Sequence record: MF327009
Strand: one strand, 5' to 3'
DNA length: 64,000 bases
Source of the DNA: Shigella phage Sf25
Below the pieces are notes generated by a model, which was not told the DNA's origin, did not search any database, and saw nothing but the letters and a program-made list of their open reading frames with translations. Shown in pieces: positions 2,553 through 49,381 of this stretch. Each line of letters starts with the position of its first letter. The stretch's first letter is position 1. Both the position numbers and the translations under genes were made by a program.

Positions 2553-2729
2553 TTATCCCTTAAGTAAGTCGTAAAATCCGCCATTCACATGCTTAGGAGC
2601 AGAAGGCCGACGAGTAGACAAACGATGACATTTAGGGCAAACATCATTTTCTCGTTCAGAAATCTTTTTAATTTTTTCATATTCATGCCCGCAATCTTCG
2701 GATTGGCATTTATAATCATACATCGGCAT
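2553..2729 (-). CDS. small zinc-ribbon protein (about 58 aa), below ORF-track cutoff
   Basis: Own translation: MPMYDYKCQSEDCGHEYEK...VCPKCHRL, two CxxC pairs; fills the gap between flanking ORFs. Confidence 0.35.
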   Translation of the reverse strand: MPMYDYKCQSEDCGHEYEKIKKISERENDVCPKCHRLSTRRPSAPKHVNGGFYDLLKG

Positions 2730-2731
2730 AA

Positions 2732-3145
2732 TTATTCCTTAAAATGTGCTTTCAGCATTTGATACAAGGACCATGCCTGTTCATTACTTTCAATAGTAAC
2801 TTTCATTATCGGGAATTCTGTAAAATCTTCTATCTGTTCCTGCTCTTCCTGCTCTTCGGCTGCCTGGTATGGATTTTCCACTTCATCAAAGAACTCAGCT
2901 TCGCTCGTTGAAAGCCAGATAAAATCTTCATCCAAAATATCTTTACCAGAAGATAATGCCAATTTTCCACTAGATGTCACAAGTTTAGTAGGACGACCAA
3001 GATAGTCAATATCTGTAACTCTAAAAGGTTCCATACCAAGACGTCGTGCATAAATTCCGTTTTCAGTATGGTCCTTGATAAAATCTTCTTGAGCTTGTTT
3101 ATTTTTAAATTGATACCATTTATTAACTTCAAATTTAATAGCCAT
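2732..3145 (-). CDS. hypothetical acidic protein
   Basis: ORF track; acidic EEQEEQEQ stretch; position between 39 and dexA. Confidence 0.45.
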
Positions 3146-3393
3146 TAATAAATTTCCTTCCAGTAAGTTGTACCGTCTTCAGTGATTTCGCGAAATACAC
3201 CGTAAATTGGTTGTTTATCACCGACTTTTTCATACACATAAACCGAAGTCAAGTGAGTGAACTTGTTGGTATGCTCTTTTTGAACTACTACCAAATTTGG
3301 GTCGAATAATACATCTTCAAATTCGTCATTAGTGCAATTCTGAACAATTTTACGTTTCATTACAATTTCCTCATTAATTGAACAGCGGAGCAA
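3145..3393 (-). CDS. hypothetical protein
   Basis: ORF track; overlapping start/stop with neighbour. Confidence 0.4.
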
Positions 3394-8845: not shown

Positions 8846-9592
8846 TTATCCTCGGATAAGTTTAAAAATTGAACAATTTAGCGGGTATCCTCTTTTCAGT
8901 TTAAGTTTATCAATAAAAGACAAGTTTTGATACCGCTCTACACCTTGAATAATTTTATCACACATATCATATTGCATTTCTGCTTCTGACAACTTTTTCA
9001 CAATTTTCCAATCCGAGCCTTTAAGAAGAACGTTCAGTTTAACAACTTCTGCGCCTTCTGCTATGCGAGAACCATCAATACGAGCTTTAAGTGCTATAAT
9101 CCTTAGCTTAATGTCAGAGGTCTGTTTTGATTTAGAAAGCTGAGAAATGTGTTCAATTCGATTTTCACGCTTTTTCTGTATAGCTTTAATTTGATTATAA
9201 GTCTTTTTGATTTTAGCCCATTTCTTTTCATCTAAATTTAGTTTATGAACTTTTTTCGCAGATGAACGACCAATTCGCAAAGCAAATAAATCCCGTTTTT
9301 CAATCAACTCTTCTAAAGTATAATCAGAACGAAATGTATTATACTTTTTCTTAACAGGGATAACATTTCCTTTAATATATCCAATGTCATTATTAAAACG
9401 TTCTAATGATAATTTCTCTCCTTCAATACGATTATCAAAAGGTTCTCCTGAATAGGCACAAACTTTTTGATCTAAAATGTTCTTAATGTAATTGAAGTCT
9501 AAGTTAAAATCTTTAGAACGTCTTTTTGCAGATGCCTGAGTGTGCTCTAAACGACGTTTAATTTTACGAATTTGGTTATTAGACAGTTTCAT
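8846..9592 (-). CDS. basic Lys/Arg-rich protein at the srd position
   Basis: 248 aa, very basic; position between dda.1 and modA-like matches T4 srd; weak degenerate HNH-like CxY..G..N..N stretch, not convincing. Confidence 0.4.
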   Translation of the reverse strand: MKLSNNQIRKIKRRLEHTQASAKRRSKDFNLDFNYIKNILDQKVCAYSGEPFDNRIEGEKLSLERFNNDIGYIKGNVIPVKKKYNTFRSDYTLEELIEKRDLFALRIGRSSAKKVHKLNLDEKKWAKIKKTYNQIKAIQKKRENRIEHISQLSKSKQTSDIKLRIIALKARIDGSRIAEGAEVVKLNVLLKGSDWKIVKKLSEAEMQYDMCDKIIQGVERYQNLSFIDKLKLKRGYPLNCSIFKLIRG

Positions 9593-9716: not shown

Positions 9717-10163
9717 TTATAGATTAAATCCTTCAAAATCAAGAGTATAGATAGTATATGTTGAATACTTTTTGTACTCATATCTATCTGCAATTCTAAA
9801 TACACTTCCAGCTGGTATCATTACTTCTTGTTCATCTGAAACTAATTCCATATTACGATAACGATGACTATCCGGAAACTTAAAGTTTGGATTGTATTCT
9901 TTACAGCGTAGAGCTTTTATAGCATACTCCTGGAAATTGAATACCATAGGAGCTTTGAATTCAAAAATAACTTGTGTGTTATACTCTAAAATTTCATTTA
10001 ACCAAGTATGGTCATCTGGTTTATTAGTAATACAATGAATTAAAAGTTCAATTTCAGATAAATTAAACCCTTCAGAAAGTAATTCTTCACGAATAGAAGC
10101 ACGCACCGATGCATCCATTGATTTTATTTTAAAATCTTTTAGTTGCATTACTGAGTATTTCAT
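9717..10163 (-). CDS. ModA-like protein, short (148 aa), ADP-ribosyltransferase-like C-terminal motif only
   Basis: SDEQEVMIPAG resembles the ExE region of the adjacent ModB-like ORF (REQEWMIPIG); R and STS motifs not found. Confidence 0.45.
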   Translation of the reverse strand: MKYSVMQLKDFKIKSMDASVRASIREELLSEGFNLSEIELLIHCITNKPDDHTWLNEILEYNTQVIFEFKAPMVFNFQEYAIKALRCKEYNPNFKFPDSHRYRNMELVSDEQEVMIPAGSVFRIADRYEYKKYSTYTIYTLDFEGFNL

Positions 10164-10783
10164 TCAACTACCTCAATATCATAAACTTTAAATGTTCCAA
10201 ATGAATCGTGTAATTTTTCTTTTGAAATAGAAGTTATTCTATACTTTCCAATTGGAATCATCCATTCTTGTTCACGCACAATCATCATTAAGTTATCAGT
10301 ACGCTCTGAATCTAGCCCATCAGTATCTTCATACGTGTACTTAAACTCAGTATTAGGAGAAGAAAGTATAATATCGCTGATATGGTCAGAATAATTAAAA
10401 GCTTTATCAGTTTTTAAGCGAAATATTATTTCAGTGAAATACTCAACATAAGAAAAACCACATGCTGTGTGCAAACTAGTAGTAAATGAATCTACCCTAT
10501 TCGTTGAAAACACTTCTCCAACTTGTAAATCTTTAATGAGTTCTTTTGTCGATTTTGATATACCACGATATAACTGATAAGGTGATTTAGTTAAATGCTT
10601 TTTAACGATTTTATTCAACTGCCGATGAAGAGCTTCATTCTTTTTAGCTTCCATACATTGCCAAAGAACAGACTGCTCAAAGTCAGTAAATTTTTCACAG
10701 ACTTTTTTATACATATCATATTGAAAATCGACACTTTCAGCTTTTATAGATAACTGTTCAACATCTGCAAGATTAATAATCAT
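10160..10783 (-). CDS. ModB-like ADP-ribosyltransferase (207 aa)
   Basis: R (LYRG), STS-like (FSTNRVDSFTTS) and ExE (REQEW) motifs in canonical order; length as T4 ModB. Confidence 0.5.
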   Translation of the reverse strand: MIINLADVEQLSIKAESVDFQYDMYKKVCEKFTDFEQSVLWQCMEAKKNEALHRQLNKIVKKHLTKSPYQLYRGISKSTKELIKDLQVGEVFSTNRVDSFTTSLHTACGFSYVEYFTEIIFRLKTDKAFNYSDHISDIILSSPNTEFKYTYEDTDGLDSERTDNLMMIVREQEWMIPIGKYRITSISKEKLHDSFGTFKVYDIEVVE

Positions 10784-10810
10784 GATAGCCTCCGTATACT
10801 TCAGAAGCTA

Positions 10811-11226
10811 TCATATCATCGTTAGAAAGGAAAGTAAACAACTTTTTGAATTATTTTGCCCAGGGAGCCCAAGGCGGAGGGTCAAGATGGTATGAAGCTA
10901 GTTCTTCTAGAAGAGCATCTGGGGCTTCAATTCCATAATTCTGTAATACTATACGGTACTCTTTCTTATAATCACTAGAATCATTCTGGTTATTCGTAGA
11001 ATGATTATCTTCTAACATTCATATCATCGTTAGAAAGGAAAGTAAACAACTTTTTGAATTATTTTGCCCAGGGAGCCCAAGGCGGAGGGTCAAGATGGTA
11101 TGAAGCTAGTTCTTCTAGAAGAGCATCTGGGGCTTCAATTCCATAATTCTGTAATACTATACGGTACTCTTTCTTATAATCACTAGAATCATTCTGGTTA
11201 TTCGTAGAATGATTATCTTCTAACAT
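10811..11226. repeat. exact tandem duplication, 2 x 208 bp
   Basis: Unit tcatatcatcgttagaaagg...gattatcttctaacat occurs twice head-to-tail with no mismatch; covers codons 6-60 and 3' flank of the small ORF 11059..11241. Confidence 0.85.
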
Positions 11227-11241
11227 CTCAAATAAATCCAT
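11059..11241 (-). CDS. small hypothetical protein (60 aa); partial second copy downstream
   Basis: ORF track; truncated duplicate (from internal Met) lies in repeat copy at about 10851-11018. Confidence 0.35.
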   Translation of the reverse strand: MDLFEMLEDNHSTNNQNDSSDYKKEYRIVLQNYGIEAPDALLEELASYHLDPPPWAPWAK

Positions 11242-11249
11242 ATTAATTC

Positions 11250-11732
11250 CTAGCGATAAAAACCAAATTGACGATTAGCTTCAATAATCTTTCTTTCTTC
11301 TTCGGACATTCTCCAGCGTAGTCCAACATCAAAATGAGCCCAGACCATCTTAACAAATGCATTTATATCTTTAATATCTTCAATAATGAATGTTTTACTT
11401 TTAGAAGGTTGACCTGCTAAATTAAGTGCTAATTTAACTTTATCGTCTTCAAACAGGGCAAAAAGACCATATTCATGAGCTCTTTTATAGCCTTTAATAG
11501 TTAAAGCTTCAGAAGAAGAAAACGGTGAATCAGTATTCTGTAAAATATCTTCAGTATGCTTTATAATTAGAATAACATTTTCTGGATATTTTCTTTCTTT
11601 TATATCTTTAATTAAAATATCCGGATTTTCTGCTAAAGGAATAATTAATGAGCACTTTTTATCAAGTGTATTTACCGATTTACCTTCTTTAGACATAAAT
11701 TCTATTGAATAATGTTTTGCTACTTCAATCAT
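11250..11732 (-). CDS. hypothetical protein
   Basis: ORF track, 160 aa. Confidence 0.45.
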
Positions 11733-11885
11733 GTGATTTCCTCTTGCCTACTAATGGGCCGTCAGGAATTTTGTTTTCCTGGATATATTTCTCATTTTCT
11801 TCCATCATTTTACTGCCAATTTTAAGAAGCAAATCCAATGCTTCATTTGCTTTAGCCTTGGCCTCTTCTAGCGTCATATCTCTGT

Positions 11886-12089
11886 TCACGATTTATCCCC
11901 ATAGATGTCTCTCATCAATTTAAGCGCTGAGCGTTCTAATTTCTTTTCTTTCTCAACGCTAATCATTGATTTCATCCATTCTTCTGATTCGTTCTGCATT
12001 TCTTTATTTGCTTGTTCAACCCAACCATCATCAATGTACATTGAGTTTGGTCTATTGAACCATTCAAACATTTTCTTCAGAACTTTCAT
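11886..12089 (-). CDS. hypothetical protein
   Basis: ORF track, 67 aa. Confidence 0.35.
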
Positions 12090-12582
12090 TTGTTTTACCT
12101 AAAACAACAGTAGGAGCATCATCAAATTCATGAATTTTTAGCAAATTTGGATGTAAACTATTCCATACAGAAGAAATAAAGTATGATAAAGCATCTTCAC
12201 TCACAATTATAAATTTATTTCCTTTATCTATTTTCCAACTATATACTGAATCATACGAATAGAAAGATAAAGGTTTATCATTATAATGTTCTGTGCTAAC
12301 ATTAATGTATTCAGATTTAGTAAATGCTTCAATTGCTCTAAACGGAATATTTGGTACAGTTTCAATAATACCAATCTTTTTAAGTTTTATTTCAGCATCT
12401 TCTGGAACTGGCATTGAAACAAAATTTTCTACGAGATACATTGGGTCACAATAACCCTTATCAATCATTACTGCTACGGTAATTGGAACGTCTTTAGCAA
12501 ACGACATGCTATTACTGCTAATATACATTTCAAACAAAATCGCTTCCATATTTTTCCTCAATCGCAAGATGTAGATGAACAA
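12064..12582 (-). CDS. hypothetical protein
   Basis: ORF track, 172 aa. Confidence 0.45.
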
Positions 12583-12899
12583 CTAGAATCGCAAGAACTT
12601 CCACACGAATCGCCCGTCCATACATGAACAGGAACATTAGTGTCATATGAATCAGAACTAGACTGTGTATTCTGCGTATTAGATGATGTAGTAGGTGTTG
12701 ACCAGCGCCAAGGATTTTTATAATATTCTTGGGCTTCTTCATAAGTCATAGTAACTGCTTCTACTGTTCCATCTCCCATATAAACATATTCAACTACAGT
12801 TAAAGGAAGGTAGTCATTTGAAATAGGAACTACACCTTCCCCAGGAGTCGTAGAGAAAAAATCCGTAAAGAAACTTTTAAACCAATTAAAGATAAACAT
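12558..12899 (-). CDS. hypothetical protein with Cys/Ser-rich C-terminal tail
   Basis: C-terminus [18 protein letters not shown]. Confidence 0.4.
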
Positions 12900-13530: not shown

Positions 13531-14308
13531 TTAATAGCCTCGATCTTGACGAGCGAAGTTTTCAGCATTTTTCAGATAATAAAGTTTAAAGATTTCCTCA
13601 GCTGACATTCCAAGAGCAATGAATTTATTCATGAAAAAGTGAAATTGGTCAATCAGTTCAAATTTAATTTCAAGCTGATCTTCAGGAGATAAGTCTTGAA
13701 TTTTCTTGGATTGCATTTCAGAATAACGTTTCTTCCAAGGTTTCCATACAGCAGAAGCTTCTTTTTCACCATTACTCATACCACCAAGAGAAGTATATAG
13801 CTCGCGAGTTTCATCTGCGATATAATCGTCTTGGTTTCGCAACCAAGCAAGAACTTCTCCTGCAGTTTCAAGTGAATCAGGATGACGATTTGTTTCTGGT
13901 TTATCATTAGCCAAACGAATCTGTAAATGCCGCTGCATGTCAAATTTTCTTGGATTGCATTTCAGAATAACGTTTCTTCCAAGGTTTCCATACAGCAGAA
14001 GCTTCTTTTTCACCATTACTCATACCACCAAGAGAAGTATATAGCTCGCGAGTTTCATCTGCGATATAATCGTCTTGGTTTCGCAACCAAGCAAGAACTT
14101 CTCCTGCAGTTTCAAGTGAATCAGGATGACGATTTGTTTCTGGTTTATCATTAGCCAAACGAATCTGTAAATGCCGCTGCATGTCAAGCATAACCTGCAA
14201 TGGGTCAATACTGTGCATAATATACTCAGCATATGCACGATTTGCTTTATCAACACCTTCGATCAAATGAGCACATTCATTAAAGTGAGCCATTATTTTT
14301 CCTTTCAA
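13531..14308 (-). pseudogene. 56: dCTP pyrophosphatase gene 56 (MazG-like) disrupted by a 244-bp tandem duplication
   Basis: Two overlapping ORFs (13940..14308 and 13531..14016) share an identical 81-aa block; removing one repeat unit restores one ORF of about 171 aa at the gene 56 position between soc and dam. Confidence 0.7.
13699..14186. repeat. exact tandem duplication, 2 x 244 bp, inside gene 56
   Basis: Head-to-tail identical copies; unit length not a multiple of 3. Confidence 0.85.
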
Positions 14309-22536: not shown

Positions 22537-23381
22537 TCACCGTTATAATCTTTTTTCACAATATGAGTTTCGCCAGTATTCCACCAATGATCAACCAAGT
22601 AAAAATGACGAGAATATACATGAAGACTTCCAACATTCCATATAATAGAACCTGCTTTATACTGACGAGTTGAATCGCCGGCATTCAAATCAGATACTAA
22701 TTTATCTAATACGTATTTTTGCCATGCATAATCATTACGGAATCCGAAGACCACGTCATTTGAGCGCATGCTTACTACTGCATTGACTTTCTTATCACGA
22801 ATCAGGTACTGTACTGTATTAGTACACATGAAATCTGACATACCATCTTTATTGTAGTCAAATTGCATGGATGGACGAGTCATGCTTACTACTGCATTGA
22901 CTTTCTTATCACGAATCAGGTACTGTACTGTATTAGTACACATGAAATCTGACATACCATCTTTATTGTAGTCAAATTGCATGGATGGACGAGTATAAAT
23001 CATGATACCACGTCGAGAATCAGGATTTTGACCAAGTTCAGCTAAACACATATCATACTGGGCATAGTTATCTTCTGACCAAATAGCCCAACCATAATTC
23101 GAGTTAATTTCGCCTTTAGAAGATGCTACCTGCTGCCAAATCTTTGGTGTTTCGCCTGGAATATCTTTGACAAACAGACTTTGAGACTTGTACCATTCAA
23201 GTTCACGCTGAATGTATTCATCATTAAGAGCGCCAAAAATAAAGGGTTCATCTGCTACAAATGATGCGCCAATAATTTCAATAGTTTTAACACCGGTTTT
23301 ATCAACTACGAAATCTTTTTCTTTTAATGCAAGCCCCAAATGAAGACGGATTTCTTCAACTGTCATAAAGTCACTAATCAT
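22527..23381 (-). CDS. 42: dCMP hydroxymethylase gp42 carrying an in-frame 38-aa tandem duplication (284 aa)
   Basis: Thymidylate-synthase-like fold; peptide VNAVVSMTRPSMQFDYNKDGMSDFMCTNTVQYLIRDKK occurs twice. Confidence 0.85.
   Translation of the reverse strand: MISDFMTVEEIRLHLGLALKEKDFVVDKTGVKTIEIIGASFVADEPFIFGALNDEYIQRELEWYKSQSLFVKDIPGETPKIWQQVASSKGEINSNYGWAIWSEDNYAQYDMCLAELGQNPDSRRGIMIYTRPSMQFDYNKDGMSDFMCTNTVQYLIRDKKVNAVVSMTRPSMQFDYNKDGMSDFMCTNTVQYLIRDKKVNAVVSMRSNDVVFGFRNDYAWQKYVLDKLVSDLNAGDSTRQYKAGSIIWNVGSLHVYSRHFYLVDHWWNTGETHIVKKDYNGEWK
22767..22994. repeat. exact tandem duplication, 2 x 114 bp, inside gene 42
   Basis: Identical head-to-tail copies, in frame. Confidence 0.85.
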
Positions 23382-24601: not shown

Positions 24602-27445
24602 TCAGCCAAACAGGAAGTCTAACGAAGCTTTTTCTTCATAGTCCATACCAGCCGATTCACACATGCCTGCAAGCGGTTTAACAAACGATTTTTGGAACAA
24701 AGTTGAGTAGTCAATCCAAGACAGTACGTCAGAACGAATTTCTTTTGGAAGTTCTGTACCCGACGGCCAAGCAATGCATTTGTCACCAAATGGATTTCCT
24801 TCACGCAATGGAAGAACCATTACTTTATTTCCATCCAAAATTGGAGCTACACCTAAACCGCTAACAGCTCGACGATAAGTTAGCACACCACGAATATGGA
24901 ACGGACATTTAAATCCTGGCCAACCTTTATCATCATATTTCGCTATATCGTTCGCAGTTTTTACTTCAGCAATAACTTTATAGTCAAGTTGACGATATTC
25001 TTTCTCGAAGTTCTTGTAATATTCTTGGACAGACTCTTCACCTTCCTGAAGAATACGACGAATACTTTCTTCGAGAGCTTCTTGGACCGCTTTAGGCGTT
25101 GAACTCTGCTGAGTTTCCATACCCATGATTTTTAGATGCGGTTCAGCAAATCGCTTATCTTCCATATCATATACGTTCAGAGCATAACGCTTTTTCGCTT
25201 TCCAAAATCCGCCAACGCCCTTTGAACCAAGTGGAGGGCAAGAAATAGCTTCACGGTCCATATGCATCAGATGCTCGCGGTTATTCATATAATCACATAA
25301 CTCACGATATGCAACATCAATCATAGGTTCCATCTTTTTCTTACCGAACTGATTCATGAATTCAACTAAATCGTTCTGCTCTTTGAATCGGTCAAGACCA
25401 ACTTTTTCAATAACTTTATCTACACAAACATATACCGAATCAGTATCACCTGCTGCAATGAAATCTTCGCCATTAGTTCCGCATACTTTATTCAGATATT
25501 CATTAATTTTACGAGCAATCCACTGAATACCAACTTGGCCGAAAATTGTGATAGCAGTAGCATTTCGCAAATCATAGTAACGGAAATGAATATTACCAAG
25601 AGCACCATAAAGACTGTTAATAAGAATTTTACGGTTCAGCTGATTTGTGTTAGCAAGTGTAGCTGCTTTTTCACACTCTTCGATCAAACTATTAAGAACA
25701 GATTCGGTGTAATTCGATAGTTCATTTAAGAAATCATCACTGAACTTAACATATCGTTCAACTTCTGGTTTAGTTGAGCAAGACCCTGCGCCTTTCATAA
25801 TAATCTTTTTAATAGCTTCGGCATTCATTTCTTCAGCGAACATTTTCTTTTTCCAATCTTTACGCTGGAAAAATACTTTAGCGATTTCCTTTGGAATGAT
25901 ACCTTCTTGATGCTTATCATACATCCATCCATTCGGAGAACAAGAATATTCATCACTCGGTTTAGGAGCTGTTCCTGCGATATATTCATGAATTGGATGA
26001 ACTTTAAACTGACCACGAATAGTCTCAGGACTAATGTTAACCTGACGAATAATGCTCGGATACAGAGACGTCAAGTCAAAACTCATAATATATCGACGAG
26101 CAATTGGTTTAGGTTCAAACACAAATGCACCCGGAAAACTCTGTTTAACGTGCGAACCTTGTTGAGGAATAACCTTATGTTCACCTTTCAATGAGTTAAA
26201 AATAATAGCATCCCAAGTTTTAATAGGACTCATTACACCGGAAAAAGGCATTTTAGCGTAATAAGACATACTTAAAACTAGATCGATAAACCCGCGAATT
26301 TTATCAATTGCTTGAACTGATTCTACGTCAATGATGTTATAACTAATGTATCGTTGATGATTAGTCTCACGAAGTTTATTAATAGGACCGTCGTATGGTA
26401 ATTTACCTTTTTTGGTTTCATGTTGAGCAACTGATTCCAAAGAGAATGACGGCAAATTAGTAAAAGCGAATTTCTTGTACAAATCTAAATAATCAAGAAT
26501 AGATACGCCATCAATAGAATAAATTTCTTTGCTGCCGTACATATTTTGAATTAGTTTGGATTTTACCCGACCGATTGGAGAGAAACGTTTCATACTGCGT
26601 TCGCCTAGAATCATTTTAACACGATTCATGATATATGGAACGTCAAACCCCTCAATATTCCAACCGGTAAAAATAGCAGGTCGTTTCTGTTCCCAGAGAT
26701 TGATATATTCCATGAGCATATCACGCTCATTATCGAATGGCATATAAATTACTCGGTCAAGAATTTCTTGAGGAACTTCATCACCACCTTCACAGTCAAG
26801 CTTAGCAGCTAACTTTGCATCCCATTTTGATACTGAACCGTACATTGAATTCAAAAGGTCGAAAACATAAAAACGATCGTCAATTGAATCGTAATGAGTG
26901 ATAGCATCAATTTCATATTCAGCTTTCATTGGGTCAGGAAATTTATCACCAGTAACCTCAATGTCACAGTTAGCTACACGAACACCGTACATTGAATTCA
27001 AAAGGTCGAAAACATAAAAACGATCGTCAATTGAATCGTAATGAGTGATAGCATCAATTTCATATTCAGCTTTCATTGGGTCAGGAAATTTATCACCAGT
27101 AACCTCAATGTCACAGTTAGCTACACGAACAAATTTTCGGTCATAAACAATTTCTGAACCATATGTATCACTGATATAAGCGAGTTTAAAATCGTTCATA
27201 CCGAGAGCTTCGAGACCGATGTCTTCCATTCGCTTCATCCAATCTCGAGCATCTTTCATTGATGGAAATTTTTGAGGAGCGCAGTTTTTACCATAGATGT
27301 CTTTGTACTTTGACTCTTCCTTACAATGCCTAAACATAGTTGGAAGATATTCTACTTCACGAGTACGTTCCTTTCCATTTTCATCAATATAACGTTCAAC
27401 AATATTATTTCCGACTGTTTCAATAGAGATATAAAATTCTTTCAT
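24602..27445 (-). CDS. 43: DNA polymerase gp43 (family B) carrying an in-frame 49-aa tandem duplication (947 aa)
   Basis: Exo I (CDIEVTG), DTDS polymerase motif, KKRY; T4 gp43 is 898 aa; duplicated block RVANCDIEVTG...LLNSMYG. Confidence 0.95.
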   Translation of the reverse strand: MKEFYISIETVGNNIVERYIDENGKERTREVEYLPTMFRHCKEESKYKDIYGKNCAPQKFPSMKDARDWMKRMEDIGLEALGMNDFKLAYISDTYGSEIVYDRKFVRVANCDIEVTGDKFPDPMKAEYEIDAITHYDSIDDRFYVFDLLNSMYGVRVANCDIEVTGDKFPDPMKAEYEIDAITHYDSIDDRFYVFDLLNSMYGSVSKWDAKLAAKLDCEGGDEVPQEILDRVIYMPFDNERDMLMEYINLWEQKRPAIFTGWNIEGFDVPYIMNRVKMILGERSMKRFSPIGRVKSKLIQNMYGSKEIYSIDGVSILDYLDLYKKFAFTNLPSFSLESVAQHETKKGKLPYDGPINKLRETNHQRYISYNIIDVESVQAIDKIRGFIDLVLSMSYYAKMPFSGVMSPIKTWDAIIFNSLKGEHKVIPQQGSHVKQSFPGAFVFEPKPIARRYIMSFDLTSLYPSIIRQVNISPETIRGQFKVHPIHEYIAGTAPKPSDEYSCSPNGWMYDKHQEGIIPKEIAKVFFQRKDWKKKMFAEEMNAEAIKKIIMKGAGSCSTKPEVERYVKFSDDFLNELSNYTESVLNSLIEECEKAATLANTNQLNRKILINSLYGALGNIHFRYYDLRNATAITIFGQVGIQWIARKINEYLNKVCGTNGEDFIAAGDTDSVYVCVDKVIEKVGLDRFKEQNDLVEFMNQFGKKKMEPMIDVAYRELCDYMNNREHLMHMDREAISCPPLGSKGVGGFWKAKKRYALNVYDMEDKRFAEPHLKIMGMETQQSSTPKAVQEALEESIRRILQEGEESVQEYYKNFEKEYRQLDYKVIAEVKTANDIAKYDDKGWPGFKCPFHIRGVLTYRRAVSGLGVAPILDGNKVMVLPLREGNPFGDKCIAWPSGTELPKEIRSDVLSWIDYSTLFQKSFVKPLAGMCESAGMDYEEKASLDFLFG
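26837..27130. repeat. exact tandem duplication, 2 x 147 bp, inside gene 43
   Basis: Identical copies, in frame; includes the Exo I motif. Confidence 0.85.
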
Positions 27446-39502: not shown

Positions 39503-39973
39503 TTAATCATGTTTCCACACCCCATCGGTATTTGACCAAAGTCGCTGATTATCTGATCCTCGCCACAGCTTTTTGGTCGGAAGATTTTTCTCATACTTCC
39601 CATCAATAATAACATCAACATATTTAAGCATTTCTAGTTGTTTAATATCTTCAAATTTATATCCTGTCCACAACCAAATGCTTTTATTGGGATAAAGATT
39701 TTTTACTGTTTGAACAATGCAATGAACAACATCTCGGTTATCAGGATAGAGAGGGTCTCCTCCAGTTATAGTTAATCCTTCTATATAATCATTATTCAAA
39801 CATTCAATTAATTGTTCTAGTGTTTCACCAGTGAATGGAACACCGTTTCTAGCGTTCCATGTTGATTTATTATAACACCCTTCGCATTTATGCAAACAAC
39901 CTGTAACGAAAAGAACGACCCTGCAACCAGGGCCATTCACAAAATCACAAGGATAAAATCTATCATAATTCAT
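39503..39973 (-). CDS. nrdG: anaerobic ribonucleotide reductase activating protein NrdG (radical SAM), 156 aa
   Basis: CxxxCxxC cluster (CLHKCEGC); stop/start overlap with nrdD. Confidence 0.85.
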   Translation of the reverse strand: MNYDRFYPCDFVNGPGCRVVLFVTGCLHKCEGCYNKSTWNARNGVPFTGETLEQLIECLNNDYIEGLTITGGDPLYPDNRDVVHCIVQTVKNLYPNKSIWLWTGYKFEDIKQLEMLKYVDVIIDGKYEKNLPTKKLWRGSDNQRLWSNTDGVWKHD

Positions 39974-40227
39974 TGATGCTTAACCCTATGCATGATTTCT
40001 TTATTTTTACCGAGATTAAATCCGCGCTCGTTAGGATTTCCCAAATAACCAACACCCTTCGCATTTATGCAAACAACCTGTAACGAAAAGAACGACCCTG
40101 CAACCAGGGCCATTCACAAAATCACAAGGATAAAATCTATCATAATTCATTGATGCTTAACCCTATGCATGATTTCTTTATTTTTACCGAGATTAAATCC
40201 GCGCTCGTTAGGATTTCCCAAATAACC
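39874..40227. repeat. exact tandem duplication, 2 x 177 bp, at the nrdD/nrdG junction
   Basis: Identical copies; second copy carries an orphan duplicate of the nrdG start region and a duplicate nrdD 3' end. Confidence 0.8.
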
Positions 40228-45632: not shown

Positions 45633-46934
45633 TTACTTAATTAACTGTAAAGCTTGTTCAAGACGATCAAGACGATTAACGGATTCTTCCCAAATCTTTT
45701 TAGCACTTTCATATTCTTTTTCTGCTTTATTTTTAATTTCTAAAGCTTCTTTATAAGCTTTTTCTAGTGCAATAACTTCTGGACGAATTTCTATTGGCTC
45801 AGGAGAATCATCGAGCCAATCCATCAATTCTTCAAGTGTGGTTTCTTCTTTAGGAGCATTCACAATTTCTTCACATTTCTTCTGATGAATTTCTTTATCT
45901 GTTAGTGAATAAGCACATTTCACTTCACGAAGACTAATTACAATTTTATATCCTTCCCATCCGCATATATTCTTAAAAGGATATGTATGAATATTTTCTA
46001 CTGTTTCCATACAAAGTAATGCAGTCTCTAACTGACGAGTTATAGTGCTAGCAATTGAGAAAAATTTATTAATATTCTTTTGGTTAGCGTTTGGTGTAAA
46101 AAATCCATAATTCACAAAAATAGCTACTTTATTTTCATCAAGCTCATATTCTAGTGAATAAGCACATTTCACTTCACGAAGACTAATTACAATTTTATAT
46201 CCTTCCCATCCGCATATATTCTTAAAAGGATATGTATGAATATTTTCTACTGTTTCCATACAAAGTAATGCAGTCTCTAACTGACGAGTTATAGTGCTAG
46301 CAATTGAGAAAAATTTATTAATATTCTTTTGGTTAGCGTTTGGTGTAAAAAATCCATAATTCACAAAAATAGCTACTTTATTTTCATCAAGCTCATATTC
46401 TTTTACGATAATCATATCAGAAGCCAAAGGATGAATTTGACGATAATCGCCATAACATAATTTAGAAGCTGATTTTAGAATTTGTCCTTTGAAAAGTCTG
46501 AAATTACTAATCCAACGACGAGTAAAAATATTCTCAGGGTCTTCTTTATTATTAAGATGATAAGAATTAACATCACCGAACCAATTATATCCTACTACAT
46601 CTTTGGTTCGTTTAATTTCTTTCCCAAAATTACCAAGAATATCCCGATTAACCAAATATGAAAGAAGACGAGACTCTTTAAAGGTTTTCTTGATATTATC
46701 TTTATCTACACGGCTAGAAATTTTACGAATTTCATGAATAAATTTAGTAGAAGAAACAATACTTGCATCAACACTATTGAGCCATTGATTGATAATGGAA
46801 AGAACGATATTTTGACCAAACATCGGTATAGCTTTATCATCAATAACGCTATTGAATGATTTGATATATTCGTTACGAGTCATATTAATCTCCTCAGTAG
46901 AAAGTAAGAACATTATACCACATCCTTGTGGCAA
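45633..46934 (-). CDS. hypothetical protein with C-terminal coiled coil, carrying an in-frame 83-aa tandem duplication
   Basis: Block EYELDENKVAIFVNYGFF...REVKCAYSL repeated twice; shares FRLFKGQILKSASKL-like motif with next ORF. Confidence 0.5.
   Translation of the reverse strand: MPQGCGIMFLLSTEEINMTRNEYIKSFNSVIDDKAIPMFGQNIVLSIINQWLNSVDASIVSSTKFIHEIRKISSRVDKDNIKKTFKESRLLSYLVNRDILGNFGKEIKRTKDVVGYNWFGDVNSYHLNNKEDPENIFTRRWISNFRLFKGQILKSASKLCYGDYRQIHPLASDMIIVKEYELDENKVAIFVNYGFFTPNANQKNINKFFSIASTITRQLETALLCMETVENIHTYPFKNICGWEGYKIVISLREVKCAYSLEYELDENKVAIFVNYGFFTPNANQKNINKFFSIASTITRQLETALLCMETVENIHTYPFKNICGWEGYKIVISLREVKCAYSLTDKEIHQKKCEEIVNAPKEETTLEELMDWLDDSPEPIEIRPEVIALEKAYKEALEIKNKAEKEYESAKKIWEESVNRLDRLEQALQLIK
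45903..46400. repeat. exact tandem duplication, 2 x 249 bp
   Basis: Identical head-to-tail copies, in frame. Confidence 0.85.
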
Positions 46935-46941: not shown

Positions 46942-48215
46942 TAGTTCAGTGCATTTAGTGCATTGTTCAGTTTAGAACGTTGCTTCGTGAGATTTTTGAC
47001 TTTTTCTTGTGCTTTTTCTAGCATCTTTTCAGCTTCTAACACTTCATTGGTCGCTTTAACGAGTTCATCATCTACTGCCTTAAGGGACTTCTCAATCGCA
47101 TCCGCGTGCCATTTTTCAACAGGTTTAAGACTCGGATTTTCAATAGGAAGAAAATTCACTTTATTGAATTTCCATGCATCTTTATTACCTGAACTATACA
47201 TCCAAAATTTAGGATCGTTTGATGAGTAATTGGATAAATTTAAATTTAAGTTATCTTGCACTTCTTGCTTTTTCTCTTGCGTGACTTCGTCCTTTCTCAA
47301 AAAATCGTATTTAAATGAAACGATCATATCAAGTTCATATGTTGTTGTGTCTAATTTAAATCGTTCGAAATGCTGTGAAATCTTAGACTGAATAGGAAGA
47401 AAATTCACTTTATTGAATTTCCATGCATCTTTATTACCTGAACTATACATCCAAAATTTAGGATCGTTTGATGAGTAATTGGATAAATTTAAATTTAAGT
47501 TATCTTGCACTTCTTGCTTTTTCTCTTGCGTGACTTCGTCCTTTCTCAAAAAATCGTATTTAAATGAAACGATCATATCAAGTTCATATGTTGTTGTGTC
47601 TAATTTAAATCGTTCGAAATGCTGTGAAATCTTAGACTGAACAGCAGCAACAACATCCATATACTTAAATGCTTCTGTCAACTGTGATTTAAGACATTCG
47701 CAAATTGAAAGAGAATTTTTTGTATTAGGTTTAAAGCTAATTCGTGCAGTTCTATTATTTTCTTTTAATGGTCTTACTTCCATCTGAAGAGTATAACCAT
47801 CAAATTTCAGGTTCTTTAAGTTAATATCAGAACCTTTTAATCGACTCGCAGTTGATAAAATTTGCTTTAATTGTCTACGGAATAGAGCAATAAATCTCCA
47901 TTCAATACGATAATGATTTGGATTGAAAAATCCAGATGATAAATCGACCTTACTTTGACCAACGCCTTGAACAAATAGAGGATTTTTATAATCAATAGTT
48001 TTACAGAAATCGGTTAGCTGCTCACGAGCAGTCATTTGTGTAATATACCCCGCTTTACTAAAATGACGTAACCATTCACTGCTATTCATATATTTAAAGT
48101 GAATATCACGATTAACTTTATCAGGGTCTAAATTATTTTGGCACAAAAATGTCATAACATCACGAGTATAGCTGGCATTACGAATCATATCTTCAATTTG
48201 AGAACGAGTTTTCAT
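46941..48215 (-). CDS. hypothetical protein with C-terminal coiled coil, carrying an in-frame 83-aa tandem duplication
   Basis: Block QSKISQHFERFKLDTTTYEL...KVNFLPI repeated twice. Confidence 0.5.
   Translation of the reverse strand: MKTRSQIEDMIRNASYTRDVMTFLCQNNLDPDKVNRDIHFKYMNSSEWLRHFSKAGYITQMTAREQLTDFCKTIDYKNPLFVQGVGQSKVDLSSGFFNPNHYRIEWRFIALFRRQLKQILSTASRLKGSDINLKNLKFDGYTLQMEVRPLKENNRTARISFKPNTKNSLSICECLKSQLTEAFKYMDVVAAVQSKISQHFERFKLDTTTYELDMIVSFKYDFLRKDEVTQEKKQEVQDNLNLNLSNYSSNDPKFWMYSSGNKDAWKFNKVNFLPIQSKISQHFERFKLDTTTYELDMIVSFKYDFLRKDEVTQEKKQEVQDNLNLNLSNYSSNDPKFWMYSSGNKDAWKFNKVNFLPIENPSLKPVEKWHADAIEKSLKAVDDELVKATNEVLEAEKMLEKAQEKVKNLTKQRSKLNNALNALN
47142..47639. repeat. exact tandem duplication, 2 x 249 bp
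   Basis: Identical head-to-tail copies, in frame. Confidence 0.85.
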
Positions 48216-48223
48216 GGTGTTCC

Positions 48224-49381
48224 TTAAGATTTAAGTAAATCAACAATTTTAATTAACTTTTCACGCTCGGATTTAGCTTTACTACTCAGTCCAGATAGTC
48301 TGAAAATTTCATCATCATATTGTTGAATAGAAATATTCAGCTCTTCAATCTGTTTATTAAAATAATCAATTTGTTCAGAATGTTTTTCGTTACTACGAAC
48401 TGGTACAGGTTTTGTAGGCAATTTAGTTGAACTGGATTCATCCGGGCGATAAATTAAAATACAACTTGAACCAATAGGGCATTTTGCACCAGATGAATAT
48501 TCTAATGTTCCAGCTTCTTTTAAAACTTCAAAAGCTAAACAGAGATGATGCCCCATATTAACATAATCTGTAGAGTGAGCTCTGATCAGCTCTTCAATCT
48601 GTTTATTAAAATAATCAATTTGTTCAGAATGTTTTTCGTTACTACGAACTGGTACAGGTTTTGTAGGCAATTTAGTTGAACTGGATTCATCCGGGCGATA
48701 AATTAAAATACAACTTGAACCAATAGGGCATTTTGCACCAGATGAATATTCTAATGTTCCAGCTTCTTTTAAAACTTCAAAAGCTAAACAGAGATGATGC
48801 CCCATATTAACATAATCTGTAGAGTGAGCTCTGATGTAATAATCATCTCCACGAATACTAAATTTAAAGCATTTAAGGTCTTCTGTATTATTGGTCTTAA
48901 AAATCATTTGTTTATCTAGACCTTTAGCTAATCGAGCGCCTAATGCTAATAATCGTCGTTGATTTTCCCACAAATCCGCAATCATTTGATCGAATGATAA
49001 TTTCGGCATTAGTCGACCATAAAGGTCATATCCTTTATTATAATTGCGAAGGATTTCACTCGCATTAATACGAGACAACGCTCCAATTTTATTAAGGGCT
49101 TTCATGATGCGATTAGATAAACCCATTCCAGACCCGTTTGTTCGTTGTAAATGTTTATCTAATCCAAACCCAATATCAACTTTAAATTTATCTAAAATTT
49201 CAGCATGAACATCTCTGTCAATAACATTCAAATCCAAAGTTTGGTTAAATCTATGAAAAAATTTATCTGGCTCTCCACGACGAAGTACAGTCCATTCATT
49301 CAATTTTTTATTAACTAAAGATTTAATTACTGCATTGACATTATTAATTACTACTGACATATTTTCCTCACTCAATTTCAA
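48224..49381 (-). CDS. hypothetical protein with C-terminal coiled coil, carrying an in-frame 83-aa tandem duplication
   Basis: Block IRAHSTDYVNMGHHLCLAFEV...NKQIEEL repeated twice. Confidence 0.5.
   Translation of the reverse strand: MKLSEENMSVVINNVNAVIKSLVNKKLNEWTVLRRGEPDKFFHRFNQTLDLNVIDRDVHAEILDKFKVDIGFGLDKHLQRTNGSGMGLSNRIMKALNKIGALSRINASEILRNYNKGYDLYGRLMPKLSFDQMIADLWENQRRLLALGARLAKGLDKQMIFKTNNTEDLKCFKFSIRGDDYYIRAHSTDYVNMGHHLCLAFEVLKEAGTLEYSSGAKCPIGSSCILIYRPDESSSTKLPTKPVPVRSNEKHSEQIDYFNKQIEELIRAHSTDYVNMGHHLCLAFEVLKEAGTLEYSSGAKCPIGSSCILIYRPDESSSTKLPTKPVPVRSNEKHSEQIDYFNKQIEELNISIQQYDDEIFRLSGLSSKAKSEREKLIKIVDLLKS
48337..48834. repeat. exact tandem duplication, 2 x 249 bp
   Basis: Identical head-to-tail copies, in frame. 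Confidence 0.85.

Follow-up and report, generated by a model that had tools for sequence, protein, structure and literature searches.

The modA locus of phage Sf25

We have analyzed a window of 64,000 nucleotides of the genome of Shigella phage Sf25 (accession MF327009.1, as given in a table in PMC13015707). On the minus strand the genes run in the order modA.2, modB, modA, srd (8846-9592), dda.1 and dda, and this is the order found in T4 and its relatives. The modB gene (10160-10783, minus strand) is intact and encodes a protein of 207 aa. The modA ORF (9717-10163, minus strand) has an ATG start that overlaps the stop codon of modB by 4 nt, as it does in T4, and it encodes just 148 aa. This short ORF is real and is as the original prediction had described it.

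T4 ModA (NP_049635.1) is encoded at the same position (i.e. modB-modA-srd-dda.1-dda) with the same 4-nt overlap, and the 148 residues that are kept in the window are 99% identical to it. From the homology of the whole product, and from its position between modB and srd, the gene can be assigned as the orthologue of T4 modA. The two proteins differ in that T4 ModA contains residues 59-110, which the window product lacks, and the window product carries the changes S53T and C185Y relative to T4.

Alignment of both protein and DNA with the modA genes of T4 (NP_049635, 200 aa) and Yersinia phage PYps35T (200 aa) gave 99% identity on either side of a single gap. The sequence missing from the window corresponds to nt 174-329 of T4 modA, i.e. 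156 bp or 52 codons, encoding aa 59-110. The junction lies at 9990-9991 and is a blunt join without microhomology, with the 156 bp absent between these two bases. The break falls within codon 58, converting ATA to ATT so that isoleucine is retained, and the modA reading frame continues through it. The 5′ part of the gene (9991-10163, minus strand) encodes aa 1-58, a helical N-terminal region that precedes the ART core. The 3′ part (9717-9990, minus strand) encodes aa 111-200 of the full-length protein, including Glu163-x-Glu165. The downstream gene srd is unaffected. Note that the gap is a determinate difference in sequence; there is no statistical signal to be evaluated and chance is not at issue.

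It had been stated that the short protein retains only its ExE-like region. The motif is indeed there, as Glu163-Gln-Glu165 within SDEQEVMIPAG (window 9825-9833), but so are aa 1-58 and the whole of aa 111-200. The neighboring ModB had been credited with R, STS and ExE motifs; it contains Arg73 and Glu171-x-Glu173, but a literal STS is found in neither ModA nor ModB. An exact protein look-up showed that the window ModB is identical to the ModB of many Tequatrovirus genomes. T4 ModB (NP_049636.1, 207 aa), an ADP-ribosyl/RNAylating transferase whose targets include ribosomal protein S1, is a paralogue of ModA that has the same fold with 27% sequence identity. Unlike the short ModA, the window ModB keeps both Arg73 and the serine region, and there is no lesion in it.

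The short ModA matches PHROG 832 (RNA polymerase ADP-ribosylase) with E = 2e-14, the match being limited to residues 59-145 of the 148-aa product. The family PF26816 (Mod_ADP_RT) is recorded for the ModA cluster; a Pfam scan using a copy without the PF26816 model gave no match for either the short ModA or the intact ModB.

Predicted effect of the deletion on the enzyme

ModA is an arginine-specific ADP-ribosyltransferase that modifies Arg265 of both α subunits of RNA polymerase early in infection. The same arginine is also modified by Alt. The gap in modA takes out Arg72 (within PLWRG), the V-S-A-S strand (aa 95-98, containing Ser96 and Ser98), and Ser109, which is reportedly the motif serine of ModA. 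The prediction that the N-terminal arginine motif is missing was therefore borne out, since Arg72 lies within the deleted aa 59-110, and the candidate serines at 96, 98 and 109 are lost with it. The motif of the family has been described as R-S-EXE (PMC10468400). In the short ModA the catalytic arginine of strand β1 and the serine motif, which positions NAD+, are absent, and the Glu-x-Glu with which strand β5 begins is present. The arginine and the second glutamate have both been probed by mutation; the R73A mutant of ModB is inactive (PMC10468400), as is the E165A mutant of ModA (PMC11404850).

A sequence search turned up no solved structure of ModA. An AlphaFold2 model was made of full-length ModA (P0093; pLDDT 84), and the structural statements made here refer to the full-length protein. 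At the N-terminus the model has helices comprising residues 5-15, 18-30, 35-47 and 55-60. The ART core then begins with a strand (70-73, containing Arg72), a helix (76-82), two strands (88-90 and 95-98, the latter containing Ser96 and Ser98) and a further helix (101-111, containing Ser109). In the full-length model it is precisely these first elements of the ART core that are removed by the gap. The predicted consequence is loss of the NAD-binding half of the ART fold, so that a complete ART β-sandwich would not be formed. On the basis of the model the short product as written could not bind NAD+ or catalyze transfer. No enzyme is expected from the 148-aa product because strand β1 with Arg72, the helix that follows, the strand with Ser96 and Ser98, and the helix with Ser109 are all absent.

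The model of full-length ModA matches bacterial ADP-ribosyltransferase toxins of the R-S-E class (C3 exoenzyme, iota toxin Ia, CDTa, Certhrax, VIP2 and HopU1) with a Foldseek probability of 1.00 and E ~1e-5, despite a sequence identity of just 10-16%. By contrast, the first half of this fold is missing from the window product.

The short form is found only in the Sf25 record

Each of the 501 phage records that match the region carries the 156 bp, giving two-piece matches that span 1,405-1,408 bp for a query of 1,251 bp. A 40-mer across the modA junction had no match in 50,697 phage records (a collection that does not include the record of Sf25 itself), whereas a control 40-mer from inside modA matched 487 of them. 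A 29-mer across the junction was absent from IMG/VR, from JGI metagenomes and from GTDB (one genome per species). In IMG/VR there are six ModA loci, all intact, and this is too few to provide a base rate for natural loss of modA. Among ~15 billion proteins there was a single exact match to the 148-aa protein, AUV63427.1, which is ModA of Shigella phage Sf25 itself, from one contig of 168,573 bp. The 148-aa product is not encoded by any assembly of the contig index. A search for homologues returned the cluster of normal 200-aa proteins, along with a divergent form of 203 aa and fragment clusters, and no protein among them shared the gap.

These searches bear directly on the two possibilities offered by the original prediction, i.e. 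an in-frame internal deletion or a naturally degenerate paralogue. At the level of sequence the former is correct; the gene is exactly 156 bp (52 codons) short compared with every relative, and alignment to T4 ModA has located the missing segment at residues 59-110. Close relatives encoding the same 148-aa protein would have counted against the original prediction, but there are none, the sole exact match being the entry of Sf25 itself. A maintained but non-catalytic ModA, for example a remnant selected for binding RNA polymerase, might be expected to preserve the reading frame, and the N-terminal helical region and C-terminal half of the protein are indeed intact and 99% identical to ModA. 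Yet there is no lineage of such proteins, with one record and no diverged relatives sharing the gap. Furthermore the flanks of the gap are nearly identical in DNA sequence to full-length genes, so the event would be so recent that selection could have left no signature. The gene also occupies the orthologous modA position and is not an extra copy. With flanks 99% identical to normal modA, and with the short form in no other genome or metagenome contig, we reject the degenerate paralogue as extremely improbable.

Other lesions in the window

The whole window was compared with the sister phage Sf24, the closest record available (97% identity). The window contains eight tandem duplications in which the copies are 100% identical, with repeated units of 114-249 nt, three of them of exactly 249 nt. 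By contrast, no tandem duplication of at least 60 nt was found in the homologous 72 kb of Sf24. The lesion nearest to the modA junction, 1,028 bp away, is a duplication with a 208-nt unit (10811-11226, i.e. 10811-11018 plus 11019-11226) that comprises most of modA.2 together with the region upstream of modB. Its first, truncated copy of modA.2 has a product of 55 aa that is annotated as Sf25_gp149. A 40-mer across the junction of this duplication had no match in the phage records, and modA.2 is single in ten contigs with a ModB identical to that of the window. A 244-nt unit is duplicated at 13699-14186 in gene 56, leading to a frameshift, and duplications of 114 nt (22767-22994) and 147 nt (26837-27130) add 38 aa to the product of gene 42 and 49 aa to that of gene 43. 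A 177-nt unit is duplicated at the nrdG/nrdD junction (39874-40227). The 249-nt units are at 45903-46400, 47142-47639 and 48337-48834, affecting nrdC.4, nrdC.5 and nrdC.6; the nrdC.5 product is 424 aa in length, compared with 341 aa in Sf24 (i.e. an additional 83 aa).

In addition to that in modA there are two blunt deletions, both without microhomology. One of 139 bp lies inside gene 62 (28190|28191), generating a frameshift after aa 117, and its junction is absent from the 50,697 phage records. The other, of 145 bp (55403|55404), removes the 3′ end of mobD.6 and adjoining intergenic sequence. Among the other lesions to which the original prediction referred are thus frameshifts in genes 56 and 62, together with large insertions in gene 42 (dCMP hydroxymethylase) and gene 43 (DNA polymerase), all four genes being essential.

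At ~13499 the window has ~335 bp less than Sf24 (Sf24 concatenated 13603-13937). We have not counted this as a lesion, as the sequence beyond the junction is diverged. From the alignment it is probably natural mosaic variation, in a variable stretch that lies immediately downstream of soc (Sf24 gp155-gp156).

In gene 62 (encoding the clamp loader) the frame changes between aa 1-117 and aa 165-187, and in gene 56 (encoding the dCTPase) aa 1-117 are joined to aa 36-172 read in a different frame. Both are classical essential genes of T4, yet Sf25 was obtained as a plaque-forming isolate. The lesions as a set are best read as assembly errors because the window as written, with essential genes broken, cannot be that of a viable plaque-forming phage; the original prediction had stopped short of this step. 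The aberrant products that were looked up are deposited proteins of Sf25, namely a DNA polymerase of 947 aa (AUV63457.1), a dCMP hydroxymethylase of 284 aa (AUV63453.1) and the 424-aa Sf25_gp219, each of which is present on the Sf25 contig only. Since these products match the deposited proteins, the errors sit in the Sf25 record and were not added later. A published pan-genome study left out Sf25 on account of frameshifted core genes.

Origin of the deletion in modA

We consider the 148-aa ModA to be an artefact of the way in which the deposited Sf25 genome was assembled and not a biological variant, with a probability of about 0.8. The gap in modA most likely belongs to the dozen or so assembly errors of the record, and a normal ModA of 200 aa is most likely what the phage itself encodes. 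In its size class and its blunt junction the gap matches the deletions in gene 62 and mobD.6, and that in gene 62 must be an artefact because an essential gene is destroyed. The spacing of 1,028 bp to the next junction is similar to the 1.2-kb segments that lie between the 249-nt duplications.

We infer that the lesions, that in modA included, belong to one class and arose by the joining of contigs. Elsewhere in the window overlapping contig ends would have been abutted without being merged, generating perfect tandem duplications of up to 249 nt, and small gaps between ordered contigs would have been closed without filler, leaving blunt gaps of 139-156 bp. The junction at 9990|9991 would then be the join of two contigs abutted over an uncovered stretch of 156 bp. 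Abutment of contigs appears to be the simplest account of duplications that are capped at 249 nt together with blunt gaps, spaced 1-12 kb apart. That the length of the gap in modA is divisible by three is a coincidence with odds of one in three; neither of the other blunt deletions is in frame.

A sharp change of sequence identity at the lesion junctions might have indicated the mixing of two phages, but this was set aside. Both SNP density in 250-bp bins relative to Sf24, and the identity of segments to 27 loci, change along the window, but not sharply. At the modA junction there is no sharp switch in SNP density relative to relatives, and hence no positive sign of two source contigs. The changes in segment identity were not used as evidence because ordinary T4-type mosaicism explains them equally well.

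The artefact is deduced from the assembled sequence, and there are points that weigh against it. The deletion is in frame, and modA is dispensable, toxic and broken elsewhere. We have therefore considered whether Sf25 truly has a 156-bp in-frame deletion that leads to loss of function of ModA, with the other lesions in the record still being artefacts. Loss of ModA should be tolerable as the protein is non-essential and Alt acts on the same arginine of the α subunit. Deletion of modA has no effect on early shut-off (PMC2988021), and T4 carrying the inactive ModA E165A is viable (PMC11404850). Loss might even be favored, as ModA is toxic to E. coli (PMC2988021). In addition the frame is kept, as selection against a polar effect or a toxic fragment might favor, and srd is untouched.

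Independent lesions in the modA genes of other T4-like contigs provide a further argument in the same direction. The disrupted loci come from gut metagenomes, sequencing runs and a GenBank phage record, and six of them (L003-L008) were reached by look-up of a 76-aa C-terminal fragment of ModA. At ~2624-3231 in five of the contigs modA is disrupted by insertion of 5 bp (AGTAT; L003), by insertion of 1 bp (L004 and L005, one a T and one a C), by deletion of 2 bp (L006) or by the nonsense mutation K93* (L007). The mutation W71* is found in L008 (21-623). In MT682712.1 (L028, 3121-3712), which is one of the ten contigs having a ModB identical to that of the window, modA is split into 42 and 159 aa. 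Truncated ModA products are also found on contigs of ~165-170 kb. The cluster of ModA fragments contains 40 sequences compared with 446 in the full-length cluster, which suggests a prior of ~5-10% that modA will be broken in a given T4-like assembly. Loss of modA, or sequencing error there, may be recurrent.

We regard a genuine deletion as unlikely, but it keeps some probability because modA is dispensable and has been independently broken in several other T4-like contigs. MT682712.1, ERZ916169 k127_2281 and Logan SRR33913798_347 resemble Sf25 in that modA is interrupted within an otherwise normal Tequatrovirus locus. However, they differ from it in having frameshift or nonsense lesions of 1-11 nt, with neighboring genes free of lesions at the loci that were examined. 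The modA lesions of other phages are point mutations or small indels, and none is of 100 bp or more, whereas the gap in Sf25 resembles the two blunt deletions of its own record, including the artefactual one in gene 62. With a lesion about every 5 kb in that record, ~0.1 would be expected by chance within the 603 bp of modA, and this is comparable to or above the natural prior. Nor is there a second sample that carries the allele.

For annotation purposes, the preferred reading of an assembly artefact means that the GenBank record of Sf25 contains many short tandem duplications and deletions, and that its aberrant proteins are unfit to be used as natural variants in comparative or machine-learning work. 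Among the entries affected in UniProt and nr are the ModA of 148 aa, the DNA polymerase of 947 aa and the dCMP hydroxymethylase of 284 aa, as well as gp56 and gp62, both of which are split. If on the other hand the deletion were genuine, it would merely add to the natural knock-outs of a gene known to be dispensable, and would thus be of modest interest. Taken with the other knock-outs it would point to recurrent natural loss of α-subunit ADP-ribosylation by ModA in the Tequatroviruses, perhaps driven by the toxicity of ModA or by host defences that sense ADP-ribosylation. That Sf25 expresses a catalytically dead ModA retaining the N-terminal helical domain and the C-terminal half seems a little less likely still.

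Variation and annotation in the surrounding genes

A ModA variant of 203 aa (P0095; L022 3121-3732) lies beside a ModB that is identical to that of the window, showing shuffling of alleles within the modB-modA pair. P0095 has 45% identity to the window product over 99% of the query and 62% identity to full-length ModA (P0093), and its C-terminus is divergent.

In several phage records, and in UniRef, modA.2 and modA.4 (L001 2909-3091 and 3563-3727) are annotated as 'molybdenum ABC transporter, periplasmic molybdenum-binding protein ModA'. This is an error arising from a collision of names that has spread across databases.

The modA.3 gene of the window (11250-11732) is an allele encoding 160 aa, and PYps35T, which is the closest phage in modB and modA, has an allele of 156 aa. 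Identity to PYps35T falls from 99.5% (9991-11018) to 91% (11227-12600), placing a mosaic boundary near the end of the 208-bp duplication.
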